From NCBI GenBank assembly GCA_947469885.1, contig CANIQT010000013.1, positions 13,604 through 77,603 of the forward strand: a stretch of DNA of 64,000 nucleotides, in the 5' to 3' direction. Both the position numbers and the translations under genes were made by a program. The DNA comes from Bacteroidota bacterium. Lineage in GTDB: Bacteria > Bacteroidota > Bacteroidia > 2-12-FULL-35-15. This document shows, piece by piece, positions 2,042 to 43,600 of this stretch. Every line of letters starts with the position of its first letter. Position 1 is the stretch's first letter. The notes beneath the pieces were generated by a model. It did no database searches, had not been told where the DNA came from, and saw only the letters and a list, made by a program, of their open reading frames with translations.

Positions 2042-4231
2042 TTGTCTGGTCAAAATAAATCAACACAGAGTTTTATGATGCAAAAACTGATTACATTAAT
2101 TGTGATATTATTTTCCTTTCAAAATAATAGCTATAGTCAAACCTGCCAAGATGTGAGTGTTGAACTTACGGCAGTGGTGCAATCGAATCCTGGTCTCATA
2201 ACATTGAATTGGGTGGCAAATGCAGCAGCCAATTCTCATGTTGTTTTCAGGAAACTAAAAACCGCATCCTCCTGGGGAACCTTTGTAGCAAGTCTTCCGG
2301 GCACAACTACACAATATATAGATTCAACAGTTGCTGTTGGTGTCAGTTATGAATATCAAATTATTCGCACAGGCACAGGGTTTTCGGGCTACGGATATAT
2401 TAATTCAGGAATATTAATTCCGGCAACGGAACAAAGAGGAAGTTTAATTTTGTTAGTTGACAGTTCATTTGCTTCTCCGCTTTCTCCTGAAATTACAAGA
2501 CTTCAAAAGGATTTGGAAGGAGACGGGTGGAAAGTAATAACACATACTATTTCTCGAACAGCTTCTGTACCATCTGTAAAATCAATCATTGCAGCAGATT
2601 ATAACAACGACCCGACAAATACTAAAGCATTGTTTTTACTGGGACACATTCCTGTTCCGTACAGCGGAGACCTTAATCCTGACGGGCATCCCGACCATGA
2701 AGGAGCCTGGCCTGCAGATGTATTTTATGGAGATATGAACGGCACATGGACAGATGCATCAATAAATGTTTCAGTTGCTTCCGACCCCAGAAACATTAAT
2801 ATTGCAGGTGATGGGAAGTACGACCAATCAATGGTTCCTGGAAATGTTTCATTACAAATAGGAAGAGTAGATTTTGCAAACATGCCTGCCTTTGTTTCTT
2901 CCGAACAACAATTGCTTCAGAATTATTTAAACAAAGATCATGATTACCGAAACAAAGTTTTCACTGCTGTTCATCGTGCAGTAATTGATGATAACTTTGG
3001 ATACTTTGGCGGAGAAGCATTTGCAGCAAGTGGCTGGAGAAATGCAAGTCCATTGGTTGGCACTGCTAATGTAAGCGCAAATGATTATTTTACAACCATG
3101 ACAGGCAATAGTTACCTCTGGTCTTATGGTTGTGGAGGTGGTACTTATACAAGTGCTGGAGGAGTTGGAGCAACTACTGATTTCACAACATCAAATCTAC
3201 AAGGAGTTTTCTCTATGTTGTTCGGCAGTTATTTTGGCGACTGGGATTCGCAAAACAATTTCTTAAGAGCTCCTCTTGCACAAGGAACAACATTAACTAA
3301 CGTTTGGGCAGGCCGACCTCATTGGGTTTTTCATCACATGGGATTAGGAGAAAACATTGGTTATGATGTAAAAGTTACGCAAAGCAATAATAGCCTTTAC
3401 TCCTACAACTATGGCGGTCGCTTTGTTCATATAGCCCTCATGGGCGACCCAACATTAAGAAATGACATTATTGCACCGGTTTCAAATGTTGTTGCCACAT
3501 CAACCGGAACCAATGCAATCATTTCCTGGACTGCTTCTGCGGATACTGTACTTGGATATAATATTTACATGAAAAATGATTCTACAACAAATTATGAGAG
3601 GATTAATTCAACTCCAATAACCGGAACTACTTATACAGATATGTGTTTGCTTTATCCAGGAGTTTATACTTATATGGTGCGTGCAGTGGTATGTCAGGTT
3701 TCTCCTAGTGGTTCGTATTACAACATGAGTGAAGGCATAAGCGATACCACCTGGAACAATAATTATCTTGCAATAAACATAAATGCAACTTATACAATCG
3801 CAGGAAATGCAGTAACATTTACAAACACTTCTACTAATGCTACGAGCTATGAATGGATTTTTGGAGATGGTAACACAAGCACCTTTGCTAGTCCTGTACA
3901 CACGTACCCAAGCGGAAATTACAATACATTACTAATTGCAACAAACGGATGTAATACAGATACACTGGTTATTTATATTCCACTTTCTGCCGGAATAAAT
4001 GAATTGAGAACAAATGATATATCAATTTTTCCAAACCCAACAACCGGGAAATTTCAACTAACAACTAATAACAATCAATCAACAACTATTACAATCAGCA
4101 ATACATTAGGAGAAATAATTTTGGAAGTAAAAGATTTAAAATCTAATTTTGAAATTGATTTGTCAAATCAACCAAAAGGAATTTATTTTCTAAGAATAGG
4201 AAATATAAATAGAAAAATAATAAAACAATAA
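2042..4231 (+). CDS. secreted multidomain protein with Fn3-like N-terminus, PKD domain and T9SS type-A C-terminal sorting domain; function unknown
   Basis: A signal peptide is most likely from the internal Met, MMQKLITLIVILFSFQNNSYSQ, giving an alternative start near 2075. A PKD-like block reads YEWIFGDGNTSTFASPVHTYPSGNYNTLLIATNGCNTDT. The C-terminal ISIFPNPTTGKFQL...KGIYFLRIGN fits the Por secretion tail (CTD) pattern. Confidence 0.6.
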   Translation: MSGQNKSTQSFMMQKLITLIVILFSFQNNSYSQTCQDVSVELTAVVQSNPGLITLNWVANAAANSHVVFRKLKTASSWGTFVASLPGTTTQYIDSTVAVGVSYEYQIIRTGTGFSGYGYINSGILIPATEQRGSLILLVDSSFASPLSPEITRLQKDLEGDGWKVITHTISRTASVPSVKSIIAADYNNDPTNTKALFLLGHIPVPYSGDLNPDGHPDHEGAWPADVFYGDMNGTWTDASINVSVASDPRNINIAGDGKYDQSMVPGNVSLQIGRVDFANMPAFVSSEQQLLQNYLNKDHDYRNKVFTAVHRAVIDDNFGYFGGEAFAASGWRNASPLVGTANVSANDYFTTMTGNSYLWSYGCGGGTYTSAGGVGATTDFTTSNLQGVFSMLFGSYFGDWDSQNNFLRAPLAQGTTLTNVWAGRPHWVFHHMGLGENIGYDVKVTQSNNSLYSYNYGGRFVHIALMGDPTLRNDIIAPVSNVVATSTGTNAIISWTASADTVLGYNIYMKNDSTTNYERINSTPITGTTYTDMCLLYPGVYTYMVRAVVCQVSPSGSYYNMSEGISDTTWNNNYLAININATYTIAGNAVTFTNTSTNATSYEWIFGDGNTSTFASPVHTYPSGNYNTLLIATNGCNTDTLVIYIPLSAGINELRTNDISIFPNPTTGKFQLTTNNNQSTTITISNTLGEIILEVKDLKSNFEIDLSNQPKGIYFLRIGNINRKIIKQ

Positions 4232-4246
4232 GTAACACATTTCAGG

Positions 4247-4275
4247 CTCCGTAACCCCTCCCCTTTTTCCAAGGG
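4247..4275 (+). terminator. GC-rich hairpin (CCCCTCCCC / GGGGAGGGG) after the CTD protein gene; part of a dispersed element
   Basis: A perfect 9-bp inverted repeat, cccctcccc-tttttccaa-ggggagggg, lies immediately after the stop at 4231. Confidence 0.45.
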
Positions 4276-4312
4276 GAGGGGAAAGGGGTGAGGTCTAACA
4301 AATAAAATATTT

Positions 4313-6358
4313 ATGAAATTACAAAACTATGCCCTAGGTAAATGGCAATCAGGTGAAGGCGAAGGACAGACACTATTTAATGCCATTAATGGTGATACAA
4401 TAGCCACGGCATCAAGCAAAGGATTAGATTTTGCTGAGATGATGAACTATGCTAGAAAAGTGGGAGGACCAGCATTACGTAAACTTACTTTTCAGGAAAG
4501 AGGAAGAATGTTGAAAGCATTAGCTTTACATCTTCAATCAAAAAAAGAAGTCTTTTATAAATTAAGCTGGGCAACCGGAGCAACCAGAACTGACAGCTGG
4601 GTAGACATTGAAGGTGGAATCGGAAATTTATTTGCTTATGCAAGTCTAAGAAGACAATTTCCTGATGAAACATTTTGCCTTGAAGGAGATGTTGCAAAGC
4701 TTAGTAAAAATGGCACGTTCATAGGTCATCACATCTGTGTACCGAAAGAAGGAGTGGCCATTCATATCAATGCATTTAACTTTCCTGTGTGGGGAATGTT
4801 GGAAAAAATAGCCGTTAACCTTTTTGCAGGTGTGCCTGCAATCGTAAAACCAGCAACCGTTACATCGTTTTTAACTGAAGCAGTAGTAAAAGAAATAGCA
4901 GATTCAAAAATACTTCCTGAAGGCGCTTTACAATTAATTTGTGGAAGCGCTAATGGAATTTTAGACCATGTAGAATCACAAGATATCGTAACATTTACAG
5001 GTTCGGCAAGCACAGGTAAAATGCTGAAAGCACATCCCCGTTTACTGGAAGAAGCTGTGCCATTTAATATGGAAGCAGATTCTTTAAACTGTTGTGTACT
5101 TGGTTCAGATGCGGTTCCAGGAACTCCGGAGTTTGATATTTTCATTAAAGAAGTTCTAAGAGAAATGACTACCAAAGCAGGGCAAAAATGTACTGCAGTA
5201 AGAAGAATTATTGTTCCTGAAAATTTAGTGGAGGATGTACAAATAGCTATGGGTAAGCGATTAGTCACCACTACTATTGGCGACCCAAATGTGGAAGGTG
5301 TACGAATGGGAGCATTGGCTGGCAAATCACAACAAAAAGAAGTAGCAGAAAAAGTAATGCAATTAGCCAAAACACAGGAAATTGTTTTCGGTGATTTAAA
5401 TAACTTCTCGGTAACCGGTGCAGACAAAGAAAAAGGAGCGTTTATGTCTCCTATATTATTCTTAAATAAAAATCCATTTAAGAATTTGGATTGCCATAGC
5501 GTTGAAGCCTTTGGCCCTGTAAGTACTATTATGCCTTATAAAACCATTGAGGAAGCAATTGAATTAGCCAAGATGGGAAAAGGTTCTTTAGTTTGTTCGA
5601 TTATAACAGGAGATGATAAAATTGCAAAACAATTTGTAATCGGTGCTGCGTGTATGCACGGTCGTATTTTAGTTTTGAATGCTGATTGTGTTAAAGAAAG
5701 CACTGGTCATGGTTCTCCAATGCCTATGCTTACTCATGGCGGACCAGGAAGAGCTGGTGGTGGCGAAGAGATGGGAGGCAAAAGGGGAGTGTTTCATTAT
5801 CTGCAACGAACCGCTATTCAAGGCTCTCCAACTTCGATTACAAATATTACCAATAATTATCAATACGGTGCAAAATATATTCAAAAAGAAATTCATCCCT
5901 TCAAAAGATATTTTGAAGAACTCGAAATTGGTGAAACTTTAATTACGGATACTCACCTTGTAACTCTTGAAAATATTGAAGCATTTGCAGAGTTAAGTGG
6001 CGATAAATTTTATGCACACATGGATGCAAACTCACTTGAAGGTACCATTTTTACAGGTCGAGTAGCTCATGGATATTATATTTTATCTCGCGCTGCAGGT
6101 TTATTTGTGGATGCTCCTAAAGGTCCTGTGTTGCTAAATTATGGAATTGATGAGTGTAGATTTACAAAACCTGTTTACCCAGGAGCAACTATCGGAGTCC
6201 GATTTACTTGTAAGGAAAAAGTTGAACAGGAAAAGAAAACAGAAGAAGATATTGCAAAAGGAATTGTAAAATGGCTGGTAGATGTGTTTGACGAAACAGG
6301 AGAAACAGTTGCTATAGCTACAATTCTCACAATGGTGAAAAAGAAAAACCAGGATTAA
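4313..6358 (+). CDS. paaZ: bifunctional PaaZ-type protein: N-terminal aldehyde dehydrogenase fused to C-terminal MaoC-like (R)-hydratase (oxepin-CoA hydrolase / 3-oxo-5,6-dehydrosuberyl-CoA semialdehyde dehydrogenase)
   Basis: The product is 681 aa, the same length as E. coli PaaZ. It shows long recognisable collinear blocks with E. coli PaaZ: AFNFPVWGMLEKIA, MEADSLNCCVLG, TTKAGQKCTAVRRIIVPE, ESTGHGSPMPMLTHGGPGRAGGGEEMGG, YLQRTAIQGSPT, IHPFKRYFEELEIGETL, GDKFYAHMD and RVAHGYYILSRAAGLFVDA. Confidence 0.85.
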   Translation: MKLQNYALGKWQSGEGEGQTLFNAINGDTIATASSKGLDFAEMMNYARKVGGPALRKLTFQERGRMLKALALHLQSKKEVFYKLSWATGATRTDSWVDIEGGIGNLFAYASLRRQFPDETFCLEGDVAKLSKNGTFIGHHICVPKEGVAIHINAFNFPVWGMLEKIAVNLFAGVPAIVKPATVTSFLTEAVVKEIADSKILPEGALQLICGSANGILDHVESQDIVTFTGSASTGKMLKAHPRLLEEAVPFNMEADSLNCCVLGSDAVPGTPEFDIFIKEVLREMTTKAGQKCTAVRRIIVPENLVEDVQIAMGKRLVTTTIGDPNVEGVRMGALAGKSQQKEVAEKVMQLAKTQEIVFGDLNNFSVTGADKEKGAFMSPILFLNKNPFKNLDCHSVEAFGPVSTIMPYKTIEEAIELAKMGKGSLVCSIITGDDKIAKQFVIGAACMHGRILVLNADCVKESTGHGSPMPMLTHGGPGRAGGGEEMGGKRGVFHYLQRTAIQGSPTSITNITNNYQYGAKYIQKEIHPFKRYFEELEIGETLITDTHLVTLENIEAFAELSGDKFYAHMDANSLEGTIFTGRVAHGYYILSRAAGLFVDAPKGPVLLNYGIDECRFTKPVYPGATIGVRFTCKEKVEQEKKTEEDIAKGIVKWLVDVFDETGETVAIATILTMVKKKNQD

Positions 6359-19937: not shown

Positions 19938-20009
19938 TAGCCCGTAGGGGAATCGAACCCCTCTTTCCAGGATGAAAACCTGGCGTCCTAACCCCTAGAC
20001 GAACGGGCC
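19938..20009 (-). tRNA. tRNA-Glu (anticodon UUC)
   Basis: Reverse complement GGCCCGTTCGTCTAGGGGTTAGGACGCCAGGTTTTCATCCTGGAAAGAGGGGTTCGATTCCCCTACGGGCTA. It folds as a cloverleaf with a 7-bp acceptor stem (first pair G-U), D-stem GTCT/GGAC, anticodon stem CCAGG/CCTGG, loop TTTTCAT and T-arm AGGGG-TTCGATT-CCCCT. CCA is not encoded. Confidence 0.8.
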
Positions 20010-33168: not shown

Positions 33169-34488
33169 ATGTCAAATACATCAGTGGAAAAATTTGTGAA
33201 ATACAAAGTAAAAGATATGTCCTTAGCAGAATGGGGACGTAAAGAAATTAAATTAGCAGAGGCAGAAATGCCGGGCTTAATGTCGTTGCGTGCCGAGTTT
33301 GGTGCTTCCAAACCCTTAAAAAATGCACGTGTTGCAGGTTGTTTGCACATGACTATTCAAACAGCAGTATTAATAGAAACCCTTGTGGAACTGGGTGCAG
33401 AAGTTACTTGGAGTTCGTGTAACATTTTCTCGACACAAGACCATGCTGCCGCTGCAATTGCCGCTGCCGGTATACAGGTATATGCTTGGAAAGGAATGAA
33501 CGAGCAGGAATTTGACTGGTGCATTGAACAAACATTGTTTTTTGGTGAAGACCGCAAACCATTAAACATGATTTTGGATGATGGTGGAGATTTAACCAAC
33601 ATGGTGTTCGACCGTTTTCCTGAGTTGATAAAAGAAATTAAAGGTCTGTCGGAAGAAACAACAACTGGGGTTCACCGTTTGCACGAGCGCATGAAAAACG
33701 GAACTTTACATGTTCCTGCTATCAACGTAAACGACTCTGTTACCAAATCAAAATTTGATAACAAATACGGTTGTCGCGAATCGTTGGTGGATGCTATCCG
33801 CAGAGCTACCGATTTAATGCTTGCTGGAAAGGTGGCTGTGGTGGCTGGATACGGTGATGTTGGAAAAGGTTCGGCTGAATCTTTATCTTCTCAAGGAGTA
33901 AGAGTAATTGTTACCGAGATTGACCCTATTTGTGCATTGCAAGCTGCAATGGACGGTTATCAAGTAATGAAAATGGATAACGCCATTAAAGAGTCTGATA
34001 TTATTGTTACTGCAACAGGAAACAAAAATATAATCTCTGAGCGTCATTTCCGTGCCATGAAACACAATGCTATTGTATGTAACATTGGTCACTTTGATAA
34101 CGAAATTGATATGGCTTGGTTGAACAAAAACTATGGCACTACCAAAGATGTAATTAAACCACAAGTGGATAAATACACCATTGATAAAAAAGATATTATT
34201 GTTTTAGCTGAAGGTCGTTTGGTAAATTTAGGTTGCGGTACAGGACATCCGTCTTTTGTAATGAGCAACTCGTTTACCAATCAAACATTGGCGCAATTGG
34301 AGCTTTGGAGCAATGCAGCCAATTACGAAAACAAAGTTTATACCTTACCAAAACACTTGGACGAAAAAGTAGCACGTTTGCACCTTGCAAAAATTAATTG
34401 TGAGTTGGATATTTTAACTTCTGAACAAGCTGCTTATATTGGTGTAACCGTTGAAGGTCCGTTTAAAAAAGACGATTACAGATATTAA
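33169..34488 (+). CDS. ahcY: adenosylhomocysteinase
   Basis: The N-terminal [23 protein letters not shown], an NAD-binding GYGDVGKG and conserved SAHH blocks are present. The product is 439 aa. Confidence 0.9.
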
Positions 34489-34641: not shown

Positions 34642-36708
34642 ATGAAGAAACTCTTTCCCCTAGTTATTGTTATTAATCTTTTACTGTGTCCGGCTTTTGC
34701 TCAAAACAAAGTCATTGATTCTCTTCAAGCAGAATTAACAAAAACAACGGATGATACCACCCGCCTTAAAATATATTTGGCACTTGGCCAGGTATGCAAT
34801 GTAAAAGATAATTTGAAATATGCTCAACCTGCACTGAAGCTTGCAGATAAACTTATTGCTCATACATTTCAGAATAATAAGAAAAATGAATTTTTAAATC
34901 AGAAGGCGGAAGTTTGTATTTTCTTTTCCAATTACTATTTTTATATTAATGATACCGCCAAAATAGCAGAATGGCAGCAAAAACTTATATCTATTTATAA
35001 AGAAACAAAAGATACAAATAGTATTGTGGATACATATTTGGGGTACAGTAGTTATTTTAAGAGTATAGGCAACTTTCCAAAATCATTAGACTGGAGCAAA
35101 AAAGGATTATCCGTATCCACAGAAATGAATTACAAAAAAGGCATTTCAAGGGCGTTATGTTATATCGGAGATATCTATCGCGACCAGGGCGAAAAAGGTC
35201 AGGCACTTCAAAACTATACCAAGGCGTTAAACCTGTTGTACGAGCTTAACGACACCACTTTACTGGTGGATGCATTGTTGGCAACAGGAGGACTTTTCCG
35301 CACTCCTCAATATTATAATCGGGCCCTTGCTTTGTGCGAAGCAAAAAAAATGAATGATAAAGTAAGTTATATCTATCGATTTTTAGGGCAGATATATCGA
35401 GAACATAAAATTTACGATACTTCATTAATAAATTATCAAAAAAGTGCATCACTCTTTGAAGCGATGAAGAATAAAGAAATGGTGAAAGATATTTTGGATG
35501 ATATAGGGTTGGTGTATGAGGAAAAAGGAGATTTGGAAAAAGCACTTGACTATCATTTAAAGGCATTAAAATCAGCCAAAGAACTTAACTATGAATATGG
35601 AATTGCCTCGTCTTATCTTTGTTTGGCTCGTACATACAACAAACAAAAAAATTACAAGCTCGCTAAAGACTATAGCGACCGTGCGCTGAAAATGAAAAAC
35701 CAGTTTAATATTGAAACTAACCGCAATGCCGAACTAACTGCTTCACAAATAGATTCGGCAGGTGGAAATAAAAACGAAGCTTTTGAGCACTATAAGCAAT
35801 ACATCTTGCTTCGCGATAAAATGCAAAGTGAAGAAATACACAAAGCAGCAGCTCAAGAGAAATTTCAAAACGAATTTGATAAACAACAGACAATTGCTAA
35901 ATCGGAACAAGAAAAAATAAAAGCAGTGGCAAATGCAGAAAGTAAAAAGCAAAAACTTATACTTCTTTTTGTGGTGCTTGGTTTGATGTTGGTATTGGTG
36001 TTTGCAGGCTTTGTGTTTCGTTCGTTACAGATAAGAAATAAACAGAATAAAATTATCACTTCGCAAAAAGCAGAAGTAGAAAAAGAAAAACAAAGAAGTG
36101 ATGAACTATTGCTTAACATTTTGCCCGAAGAAGTAGCCGAAGAGTTGAAACAAAAAGGAAGCGCAGAAGCAAAACAGTTTGATAATGTTACTGTTCTGTT
36201 TACCGATTTTGTTGGCTTTACCTTGATAAGCGAAAAACTAACACCAAAAGAATTGGTTGCCGAAATACATTATTATTTTACCGAATTTGATAAAATAACA
36301 GAGCGGAACGGGTTGGAAAAAATTAAAACCGTTGGCGATGCTTACCTTGCCATTTGTGGTTTACCTAATGAAGATAAATATCATGCAAAAAAAACGGTTC
36401 AAGCAGCGCTGGAAATAATTGAGTTTATTAATAGGCGGGCAGCAGAAGGAGGAAAGTTTAATATTCGCATAGGTATTAATTCAGGCTCGGTGGTAGCAGG
36501 TATAGTTGGTGTTAAAAAGTTTGCGTATGATATTTGGGGAGATACGGTAAACACAGCTGCAAGAATGGAACAAAACAGCCAAAACGGTAAAATAAATATT
36601 TCAGAATCTACTTATCAGTTAGTAAAAAACGACTTTAAATGTGTACACAGGGGAAAAATAGAAGCAAAAAACAAAGGCGAAATTGATATGTATTTTGTGG
36701 AAAAATAA
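34642..36708 (+). CDS. TPR-repeat sensor adenylate/guanylate cyclase (class III), membrane-anchored
   Basis: Signal peptide, then multiple TPR-like repeats, a TM helix LILLFVVLGLMLVLVFAGFVF, and a cyclase domain with VLFTDFVGFT and KTVGDAY motifs. Confidence 0.8.
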   Translation: MKKLFPLVIVINLLLCPAFAQNKVIDSLQAELTKTTDDTTRLKIYLALGQVCNVKDNLKYAQPALKLADKLIAHTFQNNKKNEFLNQKAEVCIFFSNYYFYINDTAKIAEWQQKLISIYKETKDTNSIVDTYLGYSSYFKSIGNFPKSLDWSKKGLSVSTEMNYKKGISRALCYIGDIYRDQGEKGQALQNYTKALNLLYELNDTTLLVDALLATGGLFRTPQYYNRALALCEAKKMNDKVSYIYRFLGQIYREHKIYDTSLINYQKSASLFEAMKNKEMVKDILDDIGLVYEEKGDLEKALDYHLKALKSAKELNYEYGIASSYLCLARTYNKQKNYKLAKDYSDRALKMKNQFNIETNRNAELTASQIDSAGGNKNEAFEHYKQYILLRDKMQSEEIHKAAAQEKFQNEFDKQQTIAKSEQEKIKAVANAESKKQKLILLFVVLGLMLVLVFAGFVFRSLQIRNKQNKIITSQKAEVEKEKQRSDELLLNILPEEVAEELKQKGSAEAKQFDNVTVLFTDFVGFTLISEKLTPKELVAEIHYYFTEFDKITERNGLEKIKTVGDAYLAICGLPNEDKYHAKKTVQAALEIIEFINRRAAEGGKFNIRIGINSGSVVAGIVGVKKFAYDIWGDTVNTAARMEQNSQNGKINISESTYQLVKNDFKCVHRGKIEAKNKGEIDMYFVEK

Positions 36709-36835
36709 TACCCAAATAAAAAAAGCAATGTAGGCATTGCCAAGCCCCCCGCCCTGTTGACCATAGCCTCTGACTAAATTCGATTTAACAAGACTTCCAG
36801 TCTTTTTAGCCTTTGTTGGTGTTTTTCACCAACAA

Positions 36836-37053
36836 ACGTGTGAAGAAAAAAATCGGGATATTTAATTTCGTACGTTTGCAGGTGAAAAACACCTGCAAAG
36901 GCATCGTTTTCGTTAATAATTAAGAACACCAACAACGGCTAAAAACGTGTGAAGAAAAAAATCGGGATATTTAATTTCGTACGTTTGCAGGTGAAAAACA
37001 CCTGCAAAGGCATCGTTTTCGTTAATATTTAAGAACACCAACAATGGCTAAAA
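36836..37053. repeat. two tandem copies of a 109-bp unit (98 percent identical), each containing a 10-bp-stem hairpin TTTGCAGGTG-aaaaa-CACCTGCAAA; flanked upstream by an inverted partial copy (ttttagcctttgttggtgtt, 36816-36835)
   Basis: Direct comparison of 36836-36944 with 36945-37053 shows 2 mismatches. The inverted repeat between 36816-36835 and the unit ends aacaccaacaa(c/t)ggctaaaa is visible in sequence. Confidence 0.85.
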
Positions 37054-37405
37054 GGCTTTCAGTATTTTTATTTATATGGTTATCTACACCTTTCTTCAAA
37101 TTCATAAAACAAAGATAAGTATAATTGCTACAGAGCAAAAGTTAAAGGCACAAAAATAAATTAGGGCTTTAATAATTTATACTTCTGTTTGGCATACCTT
37201 CTGATGTAGGCTCAACTATATTTTCAAAATCCTTGTATCTTTTTTAACTTTTTGCGTTATTACTATAAAAACAAAAAATATTTACGGAAAAATGTAACCT
37301 TTTATTTTATCTTTCGTAAAACTAGATATAACCACAAAACAATAAGCGCATGAAACACCCCTACCAACAGTAAACATCAAAAAATCAGTGCGCTTAAAAT
37401 TTTTT

Positions 37406-37446
37406 AACCATTAACCATTATCACTTAACCATTATCCATTAATCAC
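37406..37446 (+). promoter_or_regulatory. cluster of reiterated AACCATTA(TC) motifs upstream of the sigma-factor gene (candidate operator/promoter element)
   Basis: The sequence aaccattaaccattatcacttaaccattatccattaatcac carries three or four copies of CCATTA within 40 bp, ending 16 bp before the TTG-initiated ORF. Confidence 0.25.
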
Positions 37447-37528
37447 GGCTATCGGTTCTTTCTTGTTTGCTGTCCATTCCGTCCACACGGGATTCGTAAA
37501 TTCGTATTTATTAGTTATCCGAACCAGA

Positions 37529-38119
37529 ATGACAAAAGAACAAAAAAGAGAGGCAGAGCAACTTAGAGATGCGCCCCTCATTCAGCAACACAGAGATGGC
37601 GATGCAAAAGCATTTGCCCAACTTGAAAAACTTTACAAAACTCCCCTTTATTGGTATAGCTATAAAAAGCTGGGCAATCGCCCGGATGCTGAAGATGCCG
37701 TGCAGGAAGTATTTATAAGAGCAGTGGAAGCTATCAACAATGGAAACTACAGGGAAGAAATGCATTTTGGCGGGTGGTTGCACACAACAGCCCGCAATTA
37801 TATAGAGCATATTCAGAAAAAGAAAAAGCCAACTATAAAAAATGTGGAAGAATTACCAGAGGTGATGATGGAAGAAACAGAAAGTAAAGAAGAAATTAAA
37901 GAAAAAAGAAAACGGGTACGCAGCCTGTTTAAAGGGTTATCGCTCAGTGAAGCTAAATTAATGTTGCTTCGTTACTGGCATAAACTAAAATGGAAAGAGA
38001 TTGCAAAACGACTTAAAATAACTGAAAAGTATGCATCAGGGCTACATTCAAAGATTATTAAGAAGTTTCAAAAAAAGGCGGGTGAAAATATTTTTTTGAA
38101 AAATGGTGGGATTTTTTGA
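37529..38119 (+). CDS. sigma-70 family (ECF-type) RNA polymerase sigma factor
   Basis: Region-2-like DAVQEVFIRAVEAINNG...GWLHTTARNYI and a region-4 HTH KWKEIAKRLKITEKYASGLHSKIIKKFQKK. The track ORF begins at a TTG (37463). The ATG at 37529 (MTKEQK) is the likelier start. Confidence 0.65.
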   Translation: MTKEQKREAEQLRDAPLIQQHRDGDAKAFAQLEKLYKTPLYWYSYKKLGNRPDAEDAVQEVFIRAVEAINNGNYREEMHFGGWLHTTARNYIEHIQKKKKPTIKNVEELPEVMMEETESKEEIKEKRKRVRSLFKGLSLSEAKLMLLRYWHKLKWKEIAKRLKITEKYASGLHSKIIKKFQKKAGENIFLKNGGIF

Positions 38120-38194
38120 GTTTTGTGTATTGTATATATAAAGGGTGTTATCGTTCTTTAAATAGTAAAATTGATTTCAAGTGAAATCTGTCGC

Positions 38195-38278
38195 GTTTCC
38201 GAAGGAATGCGACACGTTTCCGAAGGAATGCGACACGTTTTCGAAGGAATGAAACAAGTTTCCTTGGAAACAGAACAA
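38195..38278 (+). repeat. four tandem 21-bp iteron-like direct repeats (GTTTCCGAAGGAATGCGACAC x2 perfect, x2 degenerate)
   Basis: 38195-38215 and 38216-38236 are identical. 38237-38257 has 3 mismatches. 38258-38278 is degenerate and contains the palindrome gtttcc-tt-ggaaac. Confidence 0.85.
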
Positions 38279-38334
38279 ATTTTAGTAGAAACAAAATAGT
38301 AAATAAAATTATAATCAATTAAAACAAGAAAAAG

Positions 38335-38442
38335 ATGAACAGCGTATTATTTCAAAGTTTCGGGATTTTTAGTCTTTTATCCTTGCTGCAGTTATACAGC
38401 GTAAAGAAGCAAAAAAAAAGGAGGTGTAAAATGTCATGGTAA
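38335..38442 (+). CDS. possible 35-aa upstream ORF (MNSVLFQSFGIFSLLSLLQLYSVKKQKKRRCKMSW) overlapping the start of the downstream gene (ATGGTAA)
   Basis: It is in frame from the ATG at 38335 to the TAA at 38440-38442. A strong Shine-Dalgarno-like AAAGGAGGTG lies at 38417-38426, which is unusual for Bacteroidota. Confidence 0.25.
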   Translation: MNSVLFQSFGIFSLLSLLQLYSVKKQKKRRCKMSW

Positions 38443-39038
38443 TCGTAAAAAATGGTTTAAAGGGAAAAAATCCTTCACAACGGGCAACATACTGTTTGAG
38501 AGTGAAAACAAAAACCACGGGAAATGCGTTTTTTCCTGATGCGGGTCCGTTTTTGGCACCGCTGGGAGATGCAGCAGCAGCAGTGAACACTGCATTGCAA
38601 AACCCGTTGGGGACAGCCGCCACAGTGAGAGAAAAAAATGGCGTGCTTAGGGTAAAGATGAACAAGTTTGTTGCTCACGTGCAGGGTGTGATAGATGAGG
38701 TGTCGGACGACCTGGCTTTGGAAATGCTTTCTACAATTGATTTGGAAGCAAAGATAGAGACACCAGTGCATATTCCTGATTTGTCGGCTAAGCAAGGTAG
38801 AGAAGCAAATTCAATAGCGGTGCGAAGAATTGCTGAAAGAAAACGGGTGACATACAGATTTCAAATCTGTACCGACCCGTCTTTGGAAGAGAACTGGAAA
38901 GATGCTAAAACATCGAGCAGGGCTAAAGTCGTGATTCGGGAATTAATTTCAGGTACCAAGTATTATTTGCGTGTTGCAATTATACGGGGCGATGTTCAGG
39001 AAGATTGGTCAGATTACATTTCTATCATTGTTGATTAA
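38436..39038 (+). CDS. hypothetical protein with C-terminal Fn3-like fold (200 aa), GC-richer than surroundings
   Basis: Intact ORF. The C-terminal SGTKYYLRVAIIRGDVQEDWSDYISIIV is beta-sandwich-like. The antisense track ORF 38475..38795 is rejected. Confidence 0.5.
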   Translation: MVIVKNGLKGKNPSQRATYCLRVKTKTTGNAFFPDAGPFLAPLGDAAAAVNTALQNPLGTAATVREKNGVLRVKMNKFVAHVQGVIDEVSDDLALEMLSTIDLEAKIETPVHIPDLSAKQGREANSIAVRRIAERKRVTYRFQICTDPSLEENWKDAKTSSRAKVVIRELISGTKYYLRVAIIRGDVQEDWSDYISIIVD

Positions 39039-39169: not shown

Positions 39170-39595
39170 TTAATTATAAATATGCAACGTGGTTCCGTCA
39201 AAGGTGGTGTTGTAGGTTTTAAGCGGCACAGAGGCAGGTCCGTTGGTTACGGTGCCATCATAAAGCGAAAATTTGGAATGACAACACGTGTCGGTAGCTA
39301 ATATATGAGTAGCATCCACCACCACTGTGGCGCAGGGTTGAGAAGGCTGGTAGGTACAGTTGCGCTCGTAAGCTATAATTTCGGAAGTAGTTTTGCGGTA
39401 CAATAATATTCCTCTCACTCCTCCTGTTATATAAGTATATCCTCCAATGGCATTCAAATCAATAAAACTAGGGCTGCTGGTGTATATATAAATATCTACA
39501 CTGGCTAAGGGCACATTGTTGTCTTGTTGTTTTTTGCAATTGAATGCAAACACAATAACCGAAACAAGAAGTAGTAGTTTAAAAACCGATTTCAT
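39170..39595 (-). CDS. small lipoprotein, hypothetical (Cys-rich)
   Basis: Signal peptide MKSVFKLLLLVSVIVFAFNC with a lipobox Cys. The 141-aa product has six further Cys (CTYQPSQPC, DTCCHSKF). Confidence 0.5.
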   Translation of the reverse strand: MKSVFKLLLLVSVIVFAFNCKKQQDNNVPLASVDIYIYTSSPSFIDLNAIGGYTYITGGVRGILLYRKTTSEIIAYERNCTYQPSQPCATVVVDATHILATDTCCHSKFSLYDGTVTNGPASVPLKTYNTTFDGTTLHIYN

Positions 39596-39784
39596 TTATT
39601 GGAAAATTATAAGCAACAAAATTAAGCAAATTTATTTAACCTGATAAATAAACGGTGTGGGCATTATATTATTACTTTTGTTGCTCATTAATAGATTGAT
39701 TCTACCATATTTCATGTGAAATAGAAAAAAATTAAACACATAGGTACATAACTCAACTTGCTAGTGGTGAAACTGTTTAAAAGT

Positions 39785-39921
39785 CAATAGCCACGACCTT
39801 TAGGTCGTGGTAACATTTGATTATAAAAATTGGCTTTAGCCAAAAAATTGTTGTTTTTGTTGGGCTGAAGCCCAATTACATCTTTAATTATTTTCCCCCG
39901 ACCTAAAGGTCGGGGCTATTG
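39785..39921. mobile_element. 137-bp MITE-like element: 26-bp imperfect terminal inverted repeats (24/26), each arm itself a perfect 8-bp-stem hairpin, enclosing two further hairpins
   Basis: The left arm is caatagccacgacctttaggtcgtgg (39785-39810). The right arm is ccccgacctaaaggtcggggctattg (39896-39921). The internal hairpins are ttggct-tt-agccaa (39830-39843) and ttgggct-ga-agcccaa (39860-39875). Confidence 0.4.
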
Positions 39922-39982
39922 TTAGTAGTCCAATACAAGTGCTTTTTCAACTATCAACTTGAGTTACTAGAAGAAAGAAACC

Positions 39983-40315
39983 TTGCAGAACTTATATATG
40001 TATAGAAAAATATTCAGAAAATTAATTTTACTCCTTCTTTGTTTGTTACCATTCACCATGGTGGATGCACAAGAAAAGAAACAGGAAAGCAAAGGAGCTA
40101 TATCAGCAAAAGTGCAACGGAGAGCAGCAAGGCAAAAATGGAAAGACCAGCGCAAAACAGAAAGAGCTCAGAAAAAGGCTGTAGCAGCACATCACAAGCG
40201 ACTTCAAACAAAAAAAACATTGAAAAGCATGAAGCAGCAGAAAAAAAAGAGCGACCGACTGAGAGATAATAAGCGAGAACCCTTTTTTGTCAGATGGTTT
40301 AAATTTAAGCATTGA
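39983..40315 (+). CDS. small secreted highly basic Lys/Arg/Gln-rich protein
   Basis: The likely start is the internal MYRKIFRKLILLLLCLLPFTMVDAQ signal peptide. The mature part is KKQESKGAISAKVQRRAARQKWKDQRKTERAQKK... Confidence 0.4.
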   Translation: MQNLYMYRKIFRKLILLLLCLLPFTMVDAQEKKQESKGAISAKVQRRAARQKWKDQRKTERAQKKAVAAHHKRLQTKKTLKSMKQQKKKSDRLRDNKREPFFVRWFKFKH

Positions 40316-40699: not shown

Positions 40700-43600
40700 A
40701 TGCTACGAAAATTACTATCTACCTTATCAATCGTTGTTGCAACTTCCGGCTGGATGATGGCACAAAACGAATCAGCAATTAAAGTTAAGTTGACCGACAA
40801 AAACAGTCATGAAACCATTCCGTTTGCAAACGTGATTGTGGAAATGGGCGGTATTCAGGCGGGTATCGGAACCACCAATATAGATGGTGAGGCAATGATA
40901 AAACCATTGAACCCTGGTAAGTATGATGTGAAAGCTACTTATGTAGGCTATCAAACAGTAGCCATTTCTAATATAACAGTTTCTGTTGGAAAAACAGTTT
41001 ACTTAAATATGGAAATGACCGCAGGTCAGGAATTAAAAGTGGTAGAAATTACCGAATGGAAAGAACCATTGATTGACCCGGATACAAAATCGGGTGGAAC
41101 AGTGACCCGCGAAGAATATGAAAATATGGCTTCGAAAAACATTAACTCTGTGGCTGCAACCACTGCAGGAGTTTATCAGAAAGATGAAGGTGGTTCTTTA
41201 AATATGCGTGGTGCCCGTGATAATGGTACTGCTTATTATGTAGATGGTCAAAAAGTAATTGGAAGTGCAGGTGTGCCGCAAGGTGGTGTGGAGCAGATTA
41301 CTACTATTGTGGGTGGTACTCCGGCTGAATACGGAGATGAAACAGGAGGTATTGTGGCAATTACTACCAGAGGACCTGCAAGTAAATACACTGGAAGTGT
41401 GGAATTAATTACATCAGGTGTTGGCGAAAAGAAAGGATTGGATGCTTACGGATATAACTTTATTGGATTTTCGGTAAATGGTCCTATATTAACCAAAAAA
41501 GATTCTGCCACTAGCAGCAAAAAATCAGTTTTAGGTTTCTCTATTTCCGGTTCCGCGATAACTGAAAAAGAACCTAATCCATCTGCAGGAGGTTTTTATA
41601 AAGTAAACAGTGATAAACTTTCTGAAATAGAACAAACTCCGCTTCGGTCGAACGGACAAGGTGGTTTGATACCCAATGCTGAGTTTGTGACCAAAGACGA
41701 CATGACCAGAGTGAAAGCGAAAACCAATGTTGGTTCCAACACTTTATTATTAAACGGAAAAGTAATTTACCAACCTACCACCAACATGGGAATTACGTTA
41801 GGTGGTTCGGTTGAATACAATAAACGTCACGATTTTGTTTACGAATACGCCTTGTTTAATCCAAGCAACAACCCTCAAACCACAGCAAGCACTTGGAGAG
41901 CTTACGCAAAATTGACTCAAAAATTTAATTCCGCTACATCAAAAGAAGAAGAAAAATCAGGATCTATTATCAAGAATGCTTATTTTACCATGCAGGCAAG
42001 TTATGCTAAAACCCACAGCAAAACATGGGACGATGACCACAAAGACAATATTTTTGATTACGGTTACATTGGTAAATTTGTACAGGAAAAAACGGTTAAC
42101 TACGACTACAAACCCGAACAGGCTATTTATTTAAGACACCCTGATGGAACTATTTATTTAGATACCGTAACCGGAGCTATTATGAATGGATGGAGAGATA
42201 GTATTCTTTATTTTACTCCTTCAAATGTAAATCCGAATGGAGTAGCATATACAAATGAATACTATGCCAATCAATATGCTCAGGGATTGTATCCTGAAAA
42301 TGGAGTTGATGTTCAAGGAGGTTTAGGGTTGATGAATGGAGACAGACCTTCCAATATCTACTCATTATGGTACAACACTGGTCGTCAGTACAACGGCTAT
42401 AGCTGGAGCGATGAAACACAATTTAGAGTATTTGCCAACTTTTCGGCAGATATTAAAAAACATGCCATCTCTTTAGGTTTTGAGTATGAACAGAGATCAC
42501 AAAGAGCCTATTCATTAGCTCCAATTGGTTTATGGACCTTGATGCGTCAGTTAGCCAACTACCATTTAAAGAATTTAGATTCCGTTGCCACAGCTTATGA
42601 TACTCAATTTGGAACCTTTTATTACTACGACAGAAAAAATGACGGAACTCAAAACCAGTTCGACCGTAGTTTCAGACAAAGTTTAGGAATGGATGTAAAC
42701 GGAACGGATTGGATTGATATTGATTCGTACGACCCGTCTAAATTTTCGATTGACATGTTTAGTGCTGATGATTTGTTAAACAATGGTAGTTCGTATGTTA
42801 GTTATTACGGATACGACCATACCGGACAAAAAATAAAAGGAAAACCAAGTTTGGATGATTTCTTTACCGCTAAAGACGATAAAGGAAATTACACCCGTCA
42901 GATAGGTGCTTATCAACCTATTTATATTGCTGGTTACATTCAAGACAAATTTGATTTCAGAGATTTGAAATTTAATGTTGGTTTGCGTGTCGACCGTTTT
43001 GATGCCAACCAAAAAGTATTAAAAGATAAATACTTATTATATGAAGCACGAACAGCAGGCGAAGTTAGTTCAATAGGTGGCAGTAATATTAACCACCCAT
43101 CAAACATTGGCGATGATTATGTAGTGTATGTGGATAACAAAGATAATCCAAGCCGAATAGTTGGTTATCGTGATGGAGATACCTGGTACAATGCGCAAGG
43201 AACTACTATTACCGACCCTTCGTCATTAACAGGAGCGAATACTGTGGATGGTGCTATTAACCCTTACCTTGTTGACCCATCTTCGGCTAAAAAGAAAATA
43301 ATTAGTACAAAAGTATTTCAAGATTACAAGCCTCAACTTAACTTTATGCCGCGTATAGCTTTCTCTTTCCCTATTTCGGATGTGGCAAGTTTCTTTGCTC
43401 ATTACGATGTGTTGACACAACGCCCTCCGGGAGGAAACAGATTAGATCCTATTGCTTACCTTAATATGGAAAACCTAAGCGGAGGATTTATTAATAACCC
43501 AAATTTGAAACCTGAAAAAACAACAGATTACGAATTAGGATTTCAAGAGGTATTGAATGAAAAGAAAAATTCAGTGTTGAAAATTACTGCTTTTTATCGC

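Follow-up and report, generated by a model that had tools for sequence, protein, structure and literature searches.

The DNA studied was a 64-kb window of contig CANIQT010000013.1, Bacteroidota-like in character with a GC content of ~35%; all coordinates given below are positions within this window. Between two divergent genes of the window lies an element with a 137-bp core (39785-39921), which is probably the core of a non-autonomous repeat of the kind represented by repetitive extragenic palindromes (REPs), REP doublets forming hairpins (REPINs) and bacterial interspersed mosaic elements (BIMEs). It is the gene-less form of a pair of inverted hairpin modules that, in other genomes, brackets genes for transposases of the Y1 (HUH) type. 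The definitions of REP, BIME, REPIN and TnpA_REP, the REP-associated tyrosine transposase (RAYT), were those of PMC8266576.

The core was read directly from the sequence as CAATAG-CCACGACCT-TT-AGGTCGTGG ... TTGGCTTTAGCCAA ... TTGGGCTGAAGCCCAA ... CCCCGACCT-AA-AGGTCGGGG-CTATTG. An earlier note, made from the letters alone, had described 26-bp arms that match as inverted repeats at 24 of 26 positions, each arm a hairpin with a perfect 8-bp stem, and two further perfect hairpins between them. The sequence reads exactly so. The inverted-repeat search of the window extended the arms to 32 nt at 88%, and the hairpin of each arm may be drawn with a 9-bp stem and 2-nt loop or, equivalently, with an 8-bp stem and a tetraloop. 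The two "mismatches" between the arms are a single compensated base pair, A-T in the left arm hairpin (H1) and C-G in the right (H4). When reverse-complemented, the right half reads CAATAG-H4-(20 nt)-TTGGGCTTCAGCCCAA and matches the left half, CAATAG-H1-(19 nt)-TTGGCTTTAGCCAA. The core is two inverted copies of one ~60-nt, two-hairpin module. The module is composed, in order, of an AATWG tag, the GC-rich hairpin H1 (8-9 bp, TTYA loop), an AT-rich spacer of ~20 nt, and a second hairpin, H2, of 4-6 bp with the form GG(G)CTTYAGCC(C), whose apex CTTYAG is identical to that of H1. The positions of these parts, and of the larger unit that contains them, are given in Table 1.

Table 1. Features of the element and its surroundings, in window coordinates.
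Feature	Positions	Strand	Evidence or remark
Sequence absent from the orthologous intergenic region of relatives (~300 nt): the 218-bp unit plus ~80 nt of other sequence	39691-39988		MAFFT alignment; ends approximate
Whole repeated unit, TA dinucleotide at both ends	39749-39966		Second copy in contig L103; outer inverted repeats
Outer inverted repeat, left arm TAACTCAACTTGCTAGTGG	39749-39767	+	Matches right arm at 16/19 in the window, 17/19 in sister strains
Left arm of core, 26 nt, CAATAGCCACGACCTTTAGGTCGTGG	39785-39810		
Left module: CAATAG tag, H1, 19-nt AT-rich spacer, H2	39785-39843	+	Sequence; pair-blind nhmmer profile; single-stranded DNA fold
5' tag CAATAG, directly 5' of H1	39785-39790	+	Family column counts
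Hairpin H1, CCACGACCT-TT-AGGTCGTGG	39791-39810	+	Repeat search; single-stranded DNA fold; family pairing
Hairpin H2, TTGGCTTTAGCCAA	39830-39843	+	Sequence; single-stranded DNA fold; family covariation
Right module, inverted copy of the left: CAATAG tag, H4, 20-nt spacer, H3	39860-39921	-	Sequence; nhmmer profile
Hairpin H3, TTGGGCTGAAGCCCAA, H2 of the inverted right module	39860-39875	-	Sequence; single-stranded DNA fold
Right arm of core, 26 nt, CCCCGACCTAAAGGTCGGGGCTATTG	39896-39921		
Hairpin H4, CCCCGACCT-AA-AGGTCGGGG, H1 of the inverted right module	39896-39915	-	Repeat search; single-stranded DNA fold
Right-module tag, CTATTG on the + strand, CAATAG on the - strand	39916-39921	-	Sequence
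Outer inverted repeat, right arm CAACTATCAACTTGAGTTA	39948-39966	-	Repeat search; boundary of homology with L103

The arm pattern occurs only once in the 64-kb window and was not matched in any of 100 shuffled sequences. Folded as RNA, the element gave z-scores of -8.1 (+ strand) and -7.7 (- strand) against shuffled sequence, and folding as DNA of the 226-nt stretch 39745-39970, which spans the whole 218-nt unit, gave -6.9. The contention that four hairpins are far above chance was thus borne out, and the structure prediction suggested for both strands returned a very stable fold on each. In single-stranded DNA folding each half of the element forms two local hairpins. The window as a whole holds only 10 GC-rich perfect hairpins, two of which are the arm hairpins; the longest of the ten (11 bp, 4255-4281, CCCCTCCCCTT-TTTCC-AAGGGGAGGGG) is unrelated in sequence to the element.

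A hairpin repeat shared among phyla

Genomes were scanned with the arm pattern CAATAGCCNCGACCTNNAGGTCGNGG, which has 22 fixed bases; in the 596 Gb searched ~0.07 chance matches were expected by our estimate. The scan returned 99 loci in ~57 assemblies, none of them the window's own locus. The hosts were Bacteroidota (Bacteroidales, Cytophagales, Chitinophagales, Flavobacteriales and, at L048, the isolate Flavipsychrobacter stenotrophus RB1R16), Ignavibacteriota, Chlorobi (Prosthecochloris) and UBP2. The assignments of the repeat to UBP2 and to Zixibacteria, the latter from a protein-based retrieval described below, rest on a single record each. Multi-copy assemblies outside the window's lineage carried 4-7 loci with the exact arm (seven in JAIFNL, six in JAYVTB, five each in JANOQK and CAWFKW). 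The element very probably belongs to a repeat family that crosses phyla.

Four forms were distinguished among the loci: single modules (H1 plus H2), which are common in Ignavibacteria; four-hairpin doublets; collapsed forms consisting of one long palindrome, CAATAGCCCCGACCTTAAGGTCGGGGCTATTG; and doublets embedded in longer, lineage-specific repeats. Doublets of inverted modules like that of the window were present at ~20 other loci. In the metagenome-assembled genome (MAG) bin_9 (JAIFNL) the four-hairpin and the collapsed forms occupy the same longer repeat. A profile search that took no account of base pairing recovered 221 modules in 751 kb, and in the window it finds two; only 6 of the 221 lay mostly inside an open reading frame (ORF) of at least 120 codons, leaving 215 extragenic, as compared with 80% of all positions lying inside such frames. 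No arm match and no Y1 relative was found in viral contigs, which gave no evidence of carriage by phage. A full-text literature search for GACCTTTAGGTC and strings like it brought up nothing but primers and papers on other subjects.

The pairing of the stems was examined in the modules recovered by the profile. Alignment A1, of 60 modules, had been pre-selected for hairpin formation, so that its pairing percentage is circular, and it served as a supplementary control only. The nhmmer profile built from it used sequence alone, is blind to pairing and is biased against double changes; it carries the covariation argument. Counts for H1 and the tag were taken from 104 of the 221 modules, those not constrained by the scan pattern. 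The H1 pairs were 94-100% paired in these 104 modules with abundant double substitutions, the counts at four pairs being CG 53, AT 46, broken 2; CG 79, GC 11, TA 10, broken 1; CG 85, AT 13, GC 3; and AT 81, TA 5, GC 5, CG 3. The first of these, dimorphic in the family, is the base pair that differs between H1 (A-T) and H4 (C-G) of the window. Covariation was also seen at two pairs of H2 (GC 164, AT 14; CG 175, TA 6). In the A1 control, the covariation exceeded that of every one of 500 shuffles, and pairing fell from 95% to 25-48% when the register was shifted. Selection acts on the hairpins as structures, with compensatory changes preserving the stems. Conserved unpaired positions were the 5' tag A-A-T-W-G (A4 64/64, T6 91/91, W7 A51/T40, G8 88/93) and the loop T-T-N-A; the asymmetry of the loop suggests that one strand is read.

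Several loci showed minor variations on the module. In L036 (~6100-6260), L060 (~4960-5000) and L085 (~3560-3590) the loop of H2 or H4 contains a further small hairpin (CCTGCC...GGCAGG type), which looks like a nested insertion targeting hairpin loops. Short tandem repeats of CGACAATAGCC(C) lay directly beside H1 in L089 (1-50) and L029 (~2070-2110); these may be products of slippage or abortive processing. Seven contigs (L001, L068, L074, L075, L080, L089 and L092) start or end inside the element, and the repeat evidently breaks short-read assemblies.

Association with Y1 transposases of subclass 1.2

Clustering of the ORFs of the 99 loci yielded one small family whose members lay between paired hairpins. 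It encodes proteins of 140-147 aa (~143 aa) that matched the transposase family Y1_Tnp (PF01797, E ~1e-28, 98.8 bits) and scored above the cut-off of the NCBIfam IS200 model NF033573 (70.8 bits, cut-off 55); with REP_Tyr_transpos (NF047646) the score fell below it (33.6 bits, cut-off 80). The gene lay exactly between H2 and H3 in L002, L047 and L087, in the order tag-H1-spacer-H2-(tnpA)-H3-spacer-H4-tag, and in L087 the tnpA stop codon was inside the loop of H3. The Y1 family comprised at least 2224 members at E <= 1e-10. Seven homologues were fetched by protein, independently of the DNA pattern (L112, L113, L117, L120, L128, L129 and L130), from Ignavibacteriota (complete genome CP053446.1), Bacteroidota, a MAG with protein-named Zixibacteria affiliation and metagenomes; modules flank all seven. 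Modules therefore bracketed the Y1 gene in 10 of the 10 cases examined, all in other genomes, two of the brackets being imperfect. The downstream H3/H4 side was degraded in L130, and in L117 the modules were rearranged, with an extra hairpin of the inverted REP (iREP) type between H2 and the gene. No hairpin pairs 1-3 kb apart that might mark other cargo were found beyond the ~0.6-kb Y1 units, and no tnpB accompanied tnpA at the loci examined.

The enzymes carried by the loci have the motifs DHIH, WQ and YIxNQEEHH. Among 120 homologues, DH[IVL]H was present in 106, WQ in 116 and Y-x3-Q-x2-HH in 112, while the Y-x-x-x-NP motif of the RAYT type was present in none. The closest solved structures in the PDB were TnpA of the insertion sequences (IS) IS608 and ISDra2, and no TnpA_REP structure was among the PDB matches. 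The survey of Quentin 2018 describes a subclass 1.2 of Y1 transposases with the motifs DH[IV]H, WQ and YIKNQKEHH and a mean length of 148 aa, distributed in Cyanobacteria and Bacteroidetes at low copy number and without IS properties (PMC6006769). By its motifs the module-bracketed enzyme matches this subclass. The literature search found no later paper on cognate repeats for subclass 1.2, although absence from the searchable literature is no proof.

Two observations on individual Y1 loci are recorded here. In L047 (5600-7050) eleven modules, with stem types CCCCCATCT and CCCCGACCT mixed, lie within 8 kb around the Y1 gene, a cluster that resembles a REPtron-style array. In L002 a 10-nt direct repeat, AATATTACTC, is found at 3662-3671 and 4311-4320, on either side of the transposase-bearing unit; such a repeat is unexpected for a Y1 transposase.

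The element was compared with the systems it most resembles. Like REPs, the window element holds an extragenic, 20-nt perfect palindrome (REPs being 20-50 nt) preceded by a conserved AATWG tag. The family occurs as singlets and as inverted doublets (REP plus iREP) with a linker, and includes inverted copies that bracket an HUH/Y1 gene; gene-less copies, of which REPs have many per genome, were seen at 4-7 loci in some other assemblies and twice in the window's lineage. It differs in that its enzyme is of class 1 (IS200-like, Y-x3-Q-x2-HH) and not of class 2 as are the RAYTs (Y-x3-NP), and in that the tag is (C)AATAG or AATTG and not GTAG or CGTC, the tag classes described for REPs (PMC3733652, PMC8266576). 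Each module also has two hairpins, H1 and H2, where a REP has one, and its sequence is nearly the same from one phylum to another, where a REP is typically confined to one species or genus. The element would work like a REPIN or BIME in a REPtron, and by its enzyme class and the lack of a GTAG tag it stands outside the strict RAYT system.

With IS200/IS605 elements and palindrome-associated transposable elements (PATEs) the family shares its associated transposase (in other genomes), which is recognised by PF01797 and NF033573 and is closest to TnpA of IS608 and ISDra2. It also shares hairpin ends with a short conserved 5' motif, comparable to the guide sequences of IS608, and gene-less copies that keep both ends. 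Unlike theirs, the ends of the element are true inverted repeats (loops TTYA on the left and TRAA on the right, tags CAATAG ... CTATTG) and do not lie on the same strand. Two further differences from IS200/IS605 are that subclass 1.2 is low-copy with no IS properties according to the survey (PMC6006769), and that the tnpA loci lack a companion tnpB, as noted above. Since the two ends are inverted, the arrangement is like the REP/iREP of REPtrons and BIMEs and not like the same-strand ends of IS608.

Three other structured sequences were discarded on inspection of the sequence, no dedicated search having been made for any of them: integron attC sites (no R'/R'' core sites, no cassette array), CRISPR repeats (no array), and IS110 bridge RNA or TnpB omega-RNA (neither gene adjacent).

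For TnpA of IS200/IS605 and for TnpA_REP it is established that the substrate is a folded hairpin of single-stranded DNA, that a short motif on its 5' side determines where the strand is cut, and that the reaction passes through a covalent 5'-phosphotyrosine intermediate (PMC8266576). By analogy with these enzymes, it is likely that the Y1 enzyme mobilises the element. It would bind the hairpins as folded in single-stranded DNA, such as that at the replication fork, and act on one strand, recognising AATWG-H1 and perhaps also H2 with its identical CTTYAG apex. The 5' tag would be used to choose the cleavage site, and gene-less units such as that of the window would be excised and reinserted, or copied, in trans. 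The host would presumably gain nothing from the window copy. A wider proposal is put forward more tentatively, as somewhat less than an even chance: subclass 1.2 enzymes and the AATWG-H1-spacer-H2 repeat might form a REPtron-like partnership, a second and independent REP-transposase system within class 1 of the Y1 family, with a repeat almost unchanged across Bacteroidota, Ignavibacteriota and Chlorobi.

A number of observations weigh against the assignment of the element to a Y1-mobilised, REP-like repeat. There is no Y1 transposase gene within the 64-kb window. Only two copies are documented in the window's lineage (at least two), and a metagenome scan for the subfamily (GATGTAATTGGGCTTNAGCCCAAC) matched the window's own locus alone. 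The table of Quentin 2018 lists subclass 1.2 as 'REP: no' (PMC6006769). The flanking modules are inverted, while IS200/IS605 ends are on the same strand, and the 'peel and paste' scheme of IS608 is not transferable unchanged. Finally, in three lineages the amplified units reach 13-70 nt past the tags, to lineage-specific, TA-flanked outer inverted repeats.

History of the locus and alternative explanations

In the window the element separates a Rieske-like lipoprotein gene (39170-39595, minus strand, start at 39595) from a divergent small basic-protein gene (ATG at 39998), which is followed at 40700 by a gene for a TonB-dependent receptor. An identical 141-aa neighbouring protein is encoded in nine freshwater-metagenome contigs and one MAG (GCA_947472355.1), and the element is present in all contigs with this protein that extend far enough. 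In four of these sister contigs the H1 stem has lost part of its sequence to a 3-bp deletion, and therefore the window copy is under no strong constraint. In contig L103 a different gene lies on the far side; homology to the window, at 92.9% and with several of the differences falling inside the element, starts exactly at 39966, which places one end of the amplified unit at that position. L103 is a second copy in the same population, whether as a real recombinant or as an assembly chimera formed through the repeat. The check for additional copies that had been proposed was thus positive, with this copy in the population and many in other genomes, and the element is not a single-copy structure.

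The 137-bp extent given earlier was right for the core, but the unit that is repeated is longer, 218 bp, and ends in the outer inverted repeats. The latter are specific to the lineage, being found nowhere else in the window nor in the fetched loci outside the window's lineage. The unit contains no ORF, and with outer inverted repeats of 17-19 nt it has the terminal inverted repeats (TIRs), the size and the non-coding nature of a miniature inverted-repeat transposable element (MITE). The search for target-site duplications yielded no unambiguous one; TA is present on both sides, and being palindromic it could equally belong to the inverted repeat.

In two relatives, L125 and L127 (orthologues at 82% and 76% protein identity), the order of receptor, small basic protein and divergent Rieske-like gene is kept. 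Their divergent start codons are 101-103 nt apart as against 402 nt in the window, and therefore ~300 nt were gained in the window's lineage, the 218-bp unit included. At 76-82% identity the relatives are too diverged for the insertion junctions to be placed, and a gap-cheap global alignment gave scattered small blocks; the size difference and a MAFFT alignment were used instead. No precise empty site was obtained for comparison with IS200/IS605 elements, which insert 3' of a fixed tetra- or pentanucleotide and make no duplication. The window copy was gained within this lineage and is now in decay.

The neighbourhood shows a second difference from L125, in which the AdoHcyase and Rieske-like genes are directly adjacent. 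In the window a block of ~4.4 kb (34642-39038) separates the AdoHcyase gene (33169-34488) from the Rieske-like gene (39170-39595); it encodes a 688-aa protein with tetratricopeptide repeats (TPR) and an adenylate-cyclase-like part, a sigma-70-like protein of 218 aa, and a 200-aa ORF. From the adjacency in L125 it follows that the repeat is located at the edge of a lineage-specific insertion. Elsewhere in the window, the segment 60001-64000 has a GC content of 0.44-0.48 compared with ~0.35 in the remainder, with no rRNA there by Rfam, and a tRNA gene (19938-20009, - strand) is the sole Rfam match in the window at or above the gathering threshold.

The earlier note had offered the terms MITE-like and non-autonomous mobile element. 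The second is favoured by the present data and the first is a fair description of the shape, yet the element is placed here with the REP, REPIN and BIME type having a Y1 counterpart, and not with classical MITEs, which DDE transposases move. Bacterial MITEs such as Correia, Nezha, RUP and ERIC are derived from DDE-transposase insertion sequences and have clear target-site duplications. The element resembles them in being small, AT-rich, non-coding, intergenic and multicopy, with terminal inverted repeats and folding into a long hairpin; it differs in that the only gene linked to the family is a Y1/HUH transposase and in lacking an unambiguous duplication.

The strongest alternative is nevertheless a classical MITE of the TIR type, in which the whole 218-bp unit was moved by a DDE transposase (for example IS630/Tc1-like and TA-duplicating) that reads the outer repeats (TAACTCAASTTG ends), the REP-like hairpins being a passenger or a former insertion. 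This explanation is kept alive because the amplified unit extends to TA-flanked outer repeats in three lineages. In the window's lineage, outer inverted repeats of 17-19 nt bound the unit common to both copies, and the design recurs in two further lineages whose outer repeats have other sequences (AGAGGTTGTTTAAA in bin_9, TTTAACCCAGATTATGCA in several Bacteroidia MAGs). It is the hairpin module, however, that is conserved across phyla, while the outer repeats differ in every lineage; in Ignavibacteria the module is dispersed with no outer repeat at all, and it is the module that brackets the Y1 genes. To suppose that three unrelated MITEs each captured this core independently would be unparsimonious, the flanking TA is open to the reading already given, and no DDE transposase with matching ends was seen in the window, which alone was searched for one and not systematically. 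A DDE-moved MITE is accordingly considered unlikely.

A structured RNA, whether a small RNA (sRNA) or a terminator or insulator of several stems, was also among the earlier suggestions. It would be transcribed from the intergenic DNA and act on the flanking genes. This reading gains little support, and we regard it as very unlikely. The stable fold on either strand (z ~ -8) and the maintenance of the stems by compensatory changes would suit such an RNA, and there are two lenient terminator-like matches, at H4 on the + strand and at H2 on the - strand, with no others. Against these stands the result that no Rfam 15 family was found at threshold, the best matches being plant miRNA precursors at 10-20% of the gathering score. 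The best Rfam match in 39650-40050 scored 24.6 bits against a threshold of 211, and a permissive E-value search likewise gave no credible family. A terminator has no obvious use between divergent genes, the relatives manage without the element, and the sister strains tolerate the deletion that breaks H1. Three features point to a role at the level of DNA: the element is mirror-symmetric, the family comes as singlets, doublets and collapsed palindromes, and its modules surround a transposase gene.

Slightly less probable again is co-option by the host, whether the element binds nucleoid or topology proteins in the manner of a BIME, a role assigned to BIMEs in E. coli (PMC8266576), or supplies a new promoter region to the gene at 39998. 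Through the insertion this small basic-protein gene came to lie ~300 nt from most of its former upstream region; only ~10 nt of ancestral upstream sequence are left beside the ATG, and therefore the promoter of the gene is probably within the inserted DNA. That H1 is decaying in sister strains, and that the relatives lack the element, argues against an essential role.

Significance of the repeat and its putative enzyme

As a selfish repeat the element is of a well-known general type; it is a REP-like doublet linked to Y1 transposases of class 1, subclass 1.2. REPs and REPINs with domesticated Y1 transposases are known mainly from Proteobacteria, where the enzymes are of class 2. What is new is the link between a hairpin repeat widespread in Bacteroidota, Ignavibacteriota and Chlorobi and a class 1 subclass for which the published survey recorded no cognate DNA. 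In practical terms, such repeats break metagenome assemblies: several loci end inside the element, and contig L103 may be a chimera formed through the repeat, or a recombinant.

If the link with the enzyme is true, single-stranded DNA of the form AATWG-H1-spacer-H2 would be a candidate substrate for subclass 1.2, and the REPtron lifestyle would have had a second origin. The repeat would then be far more conserved than classical REPs, through shared constraint or through frequent transfer between phyla. It would also pose the question of why its sequence stays near-constant across phyla, when classical REPs change from species to species as they co-evolve with their enzyme.

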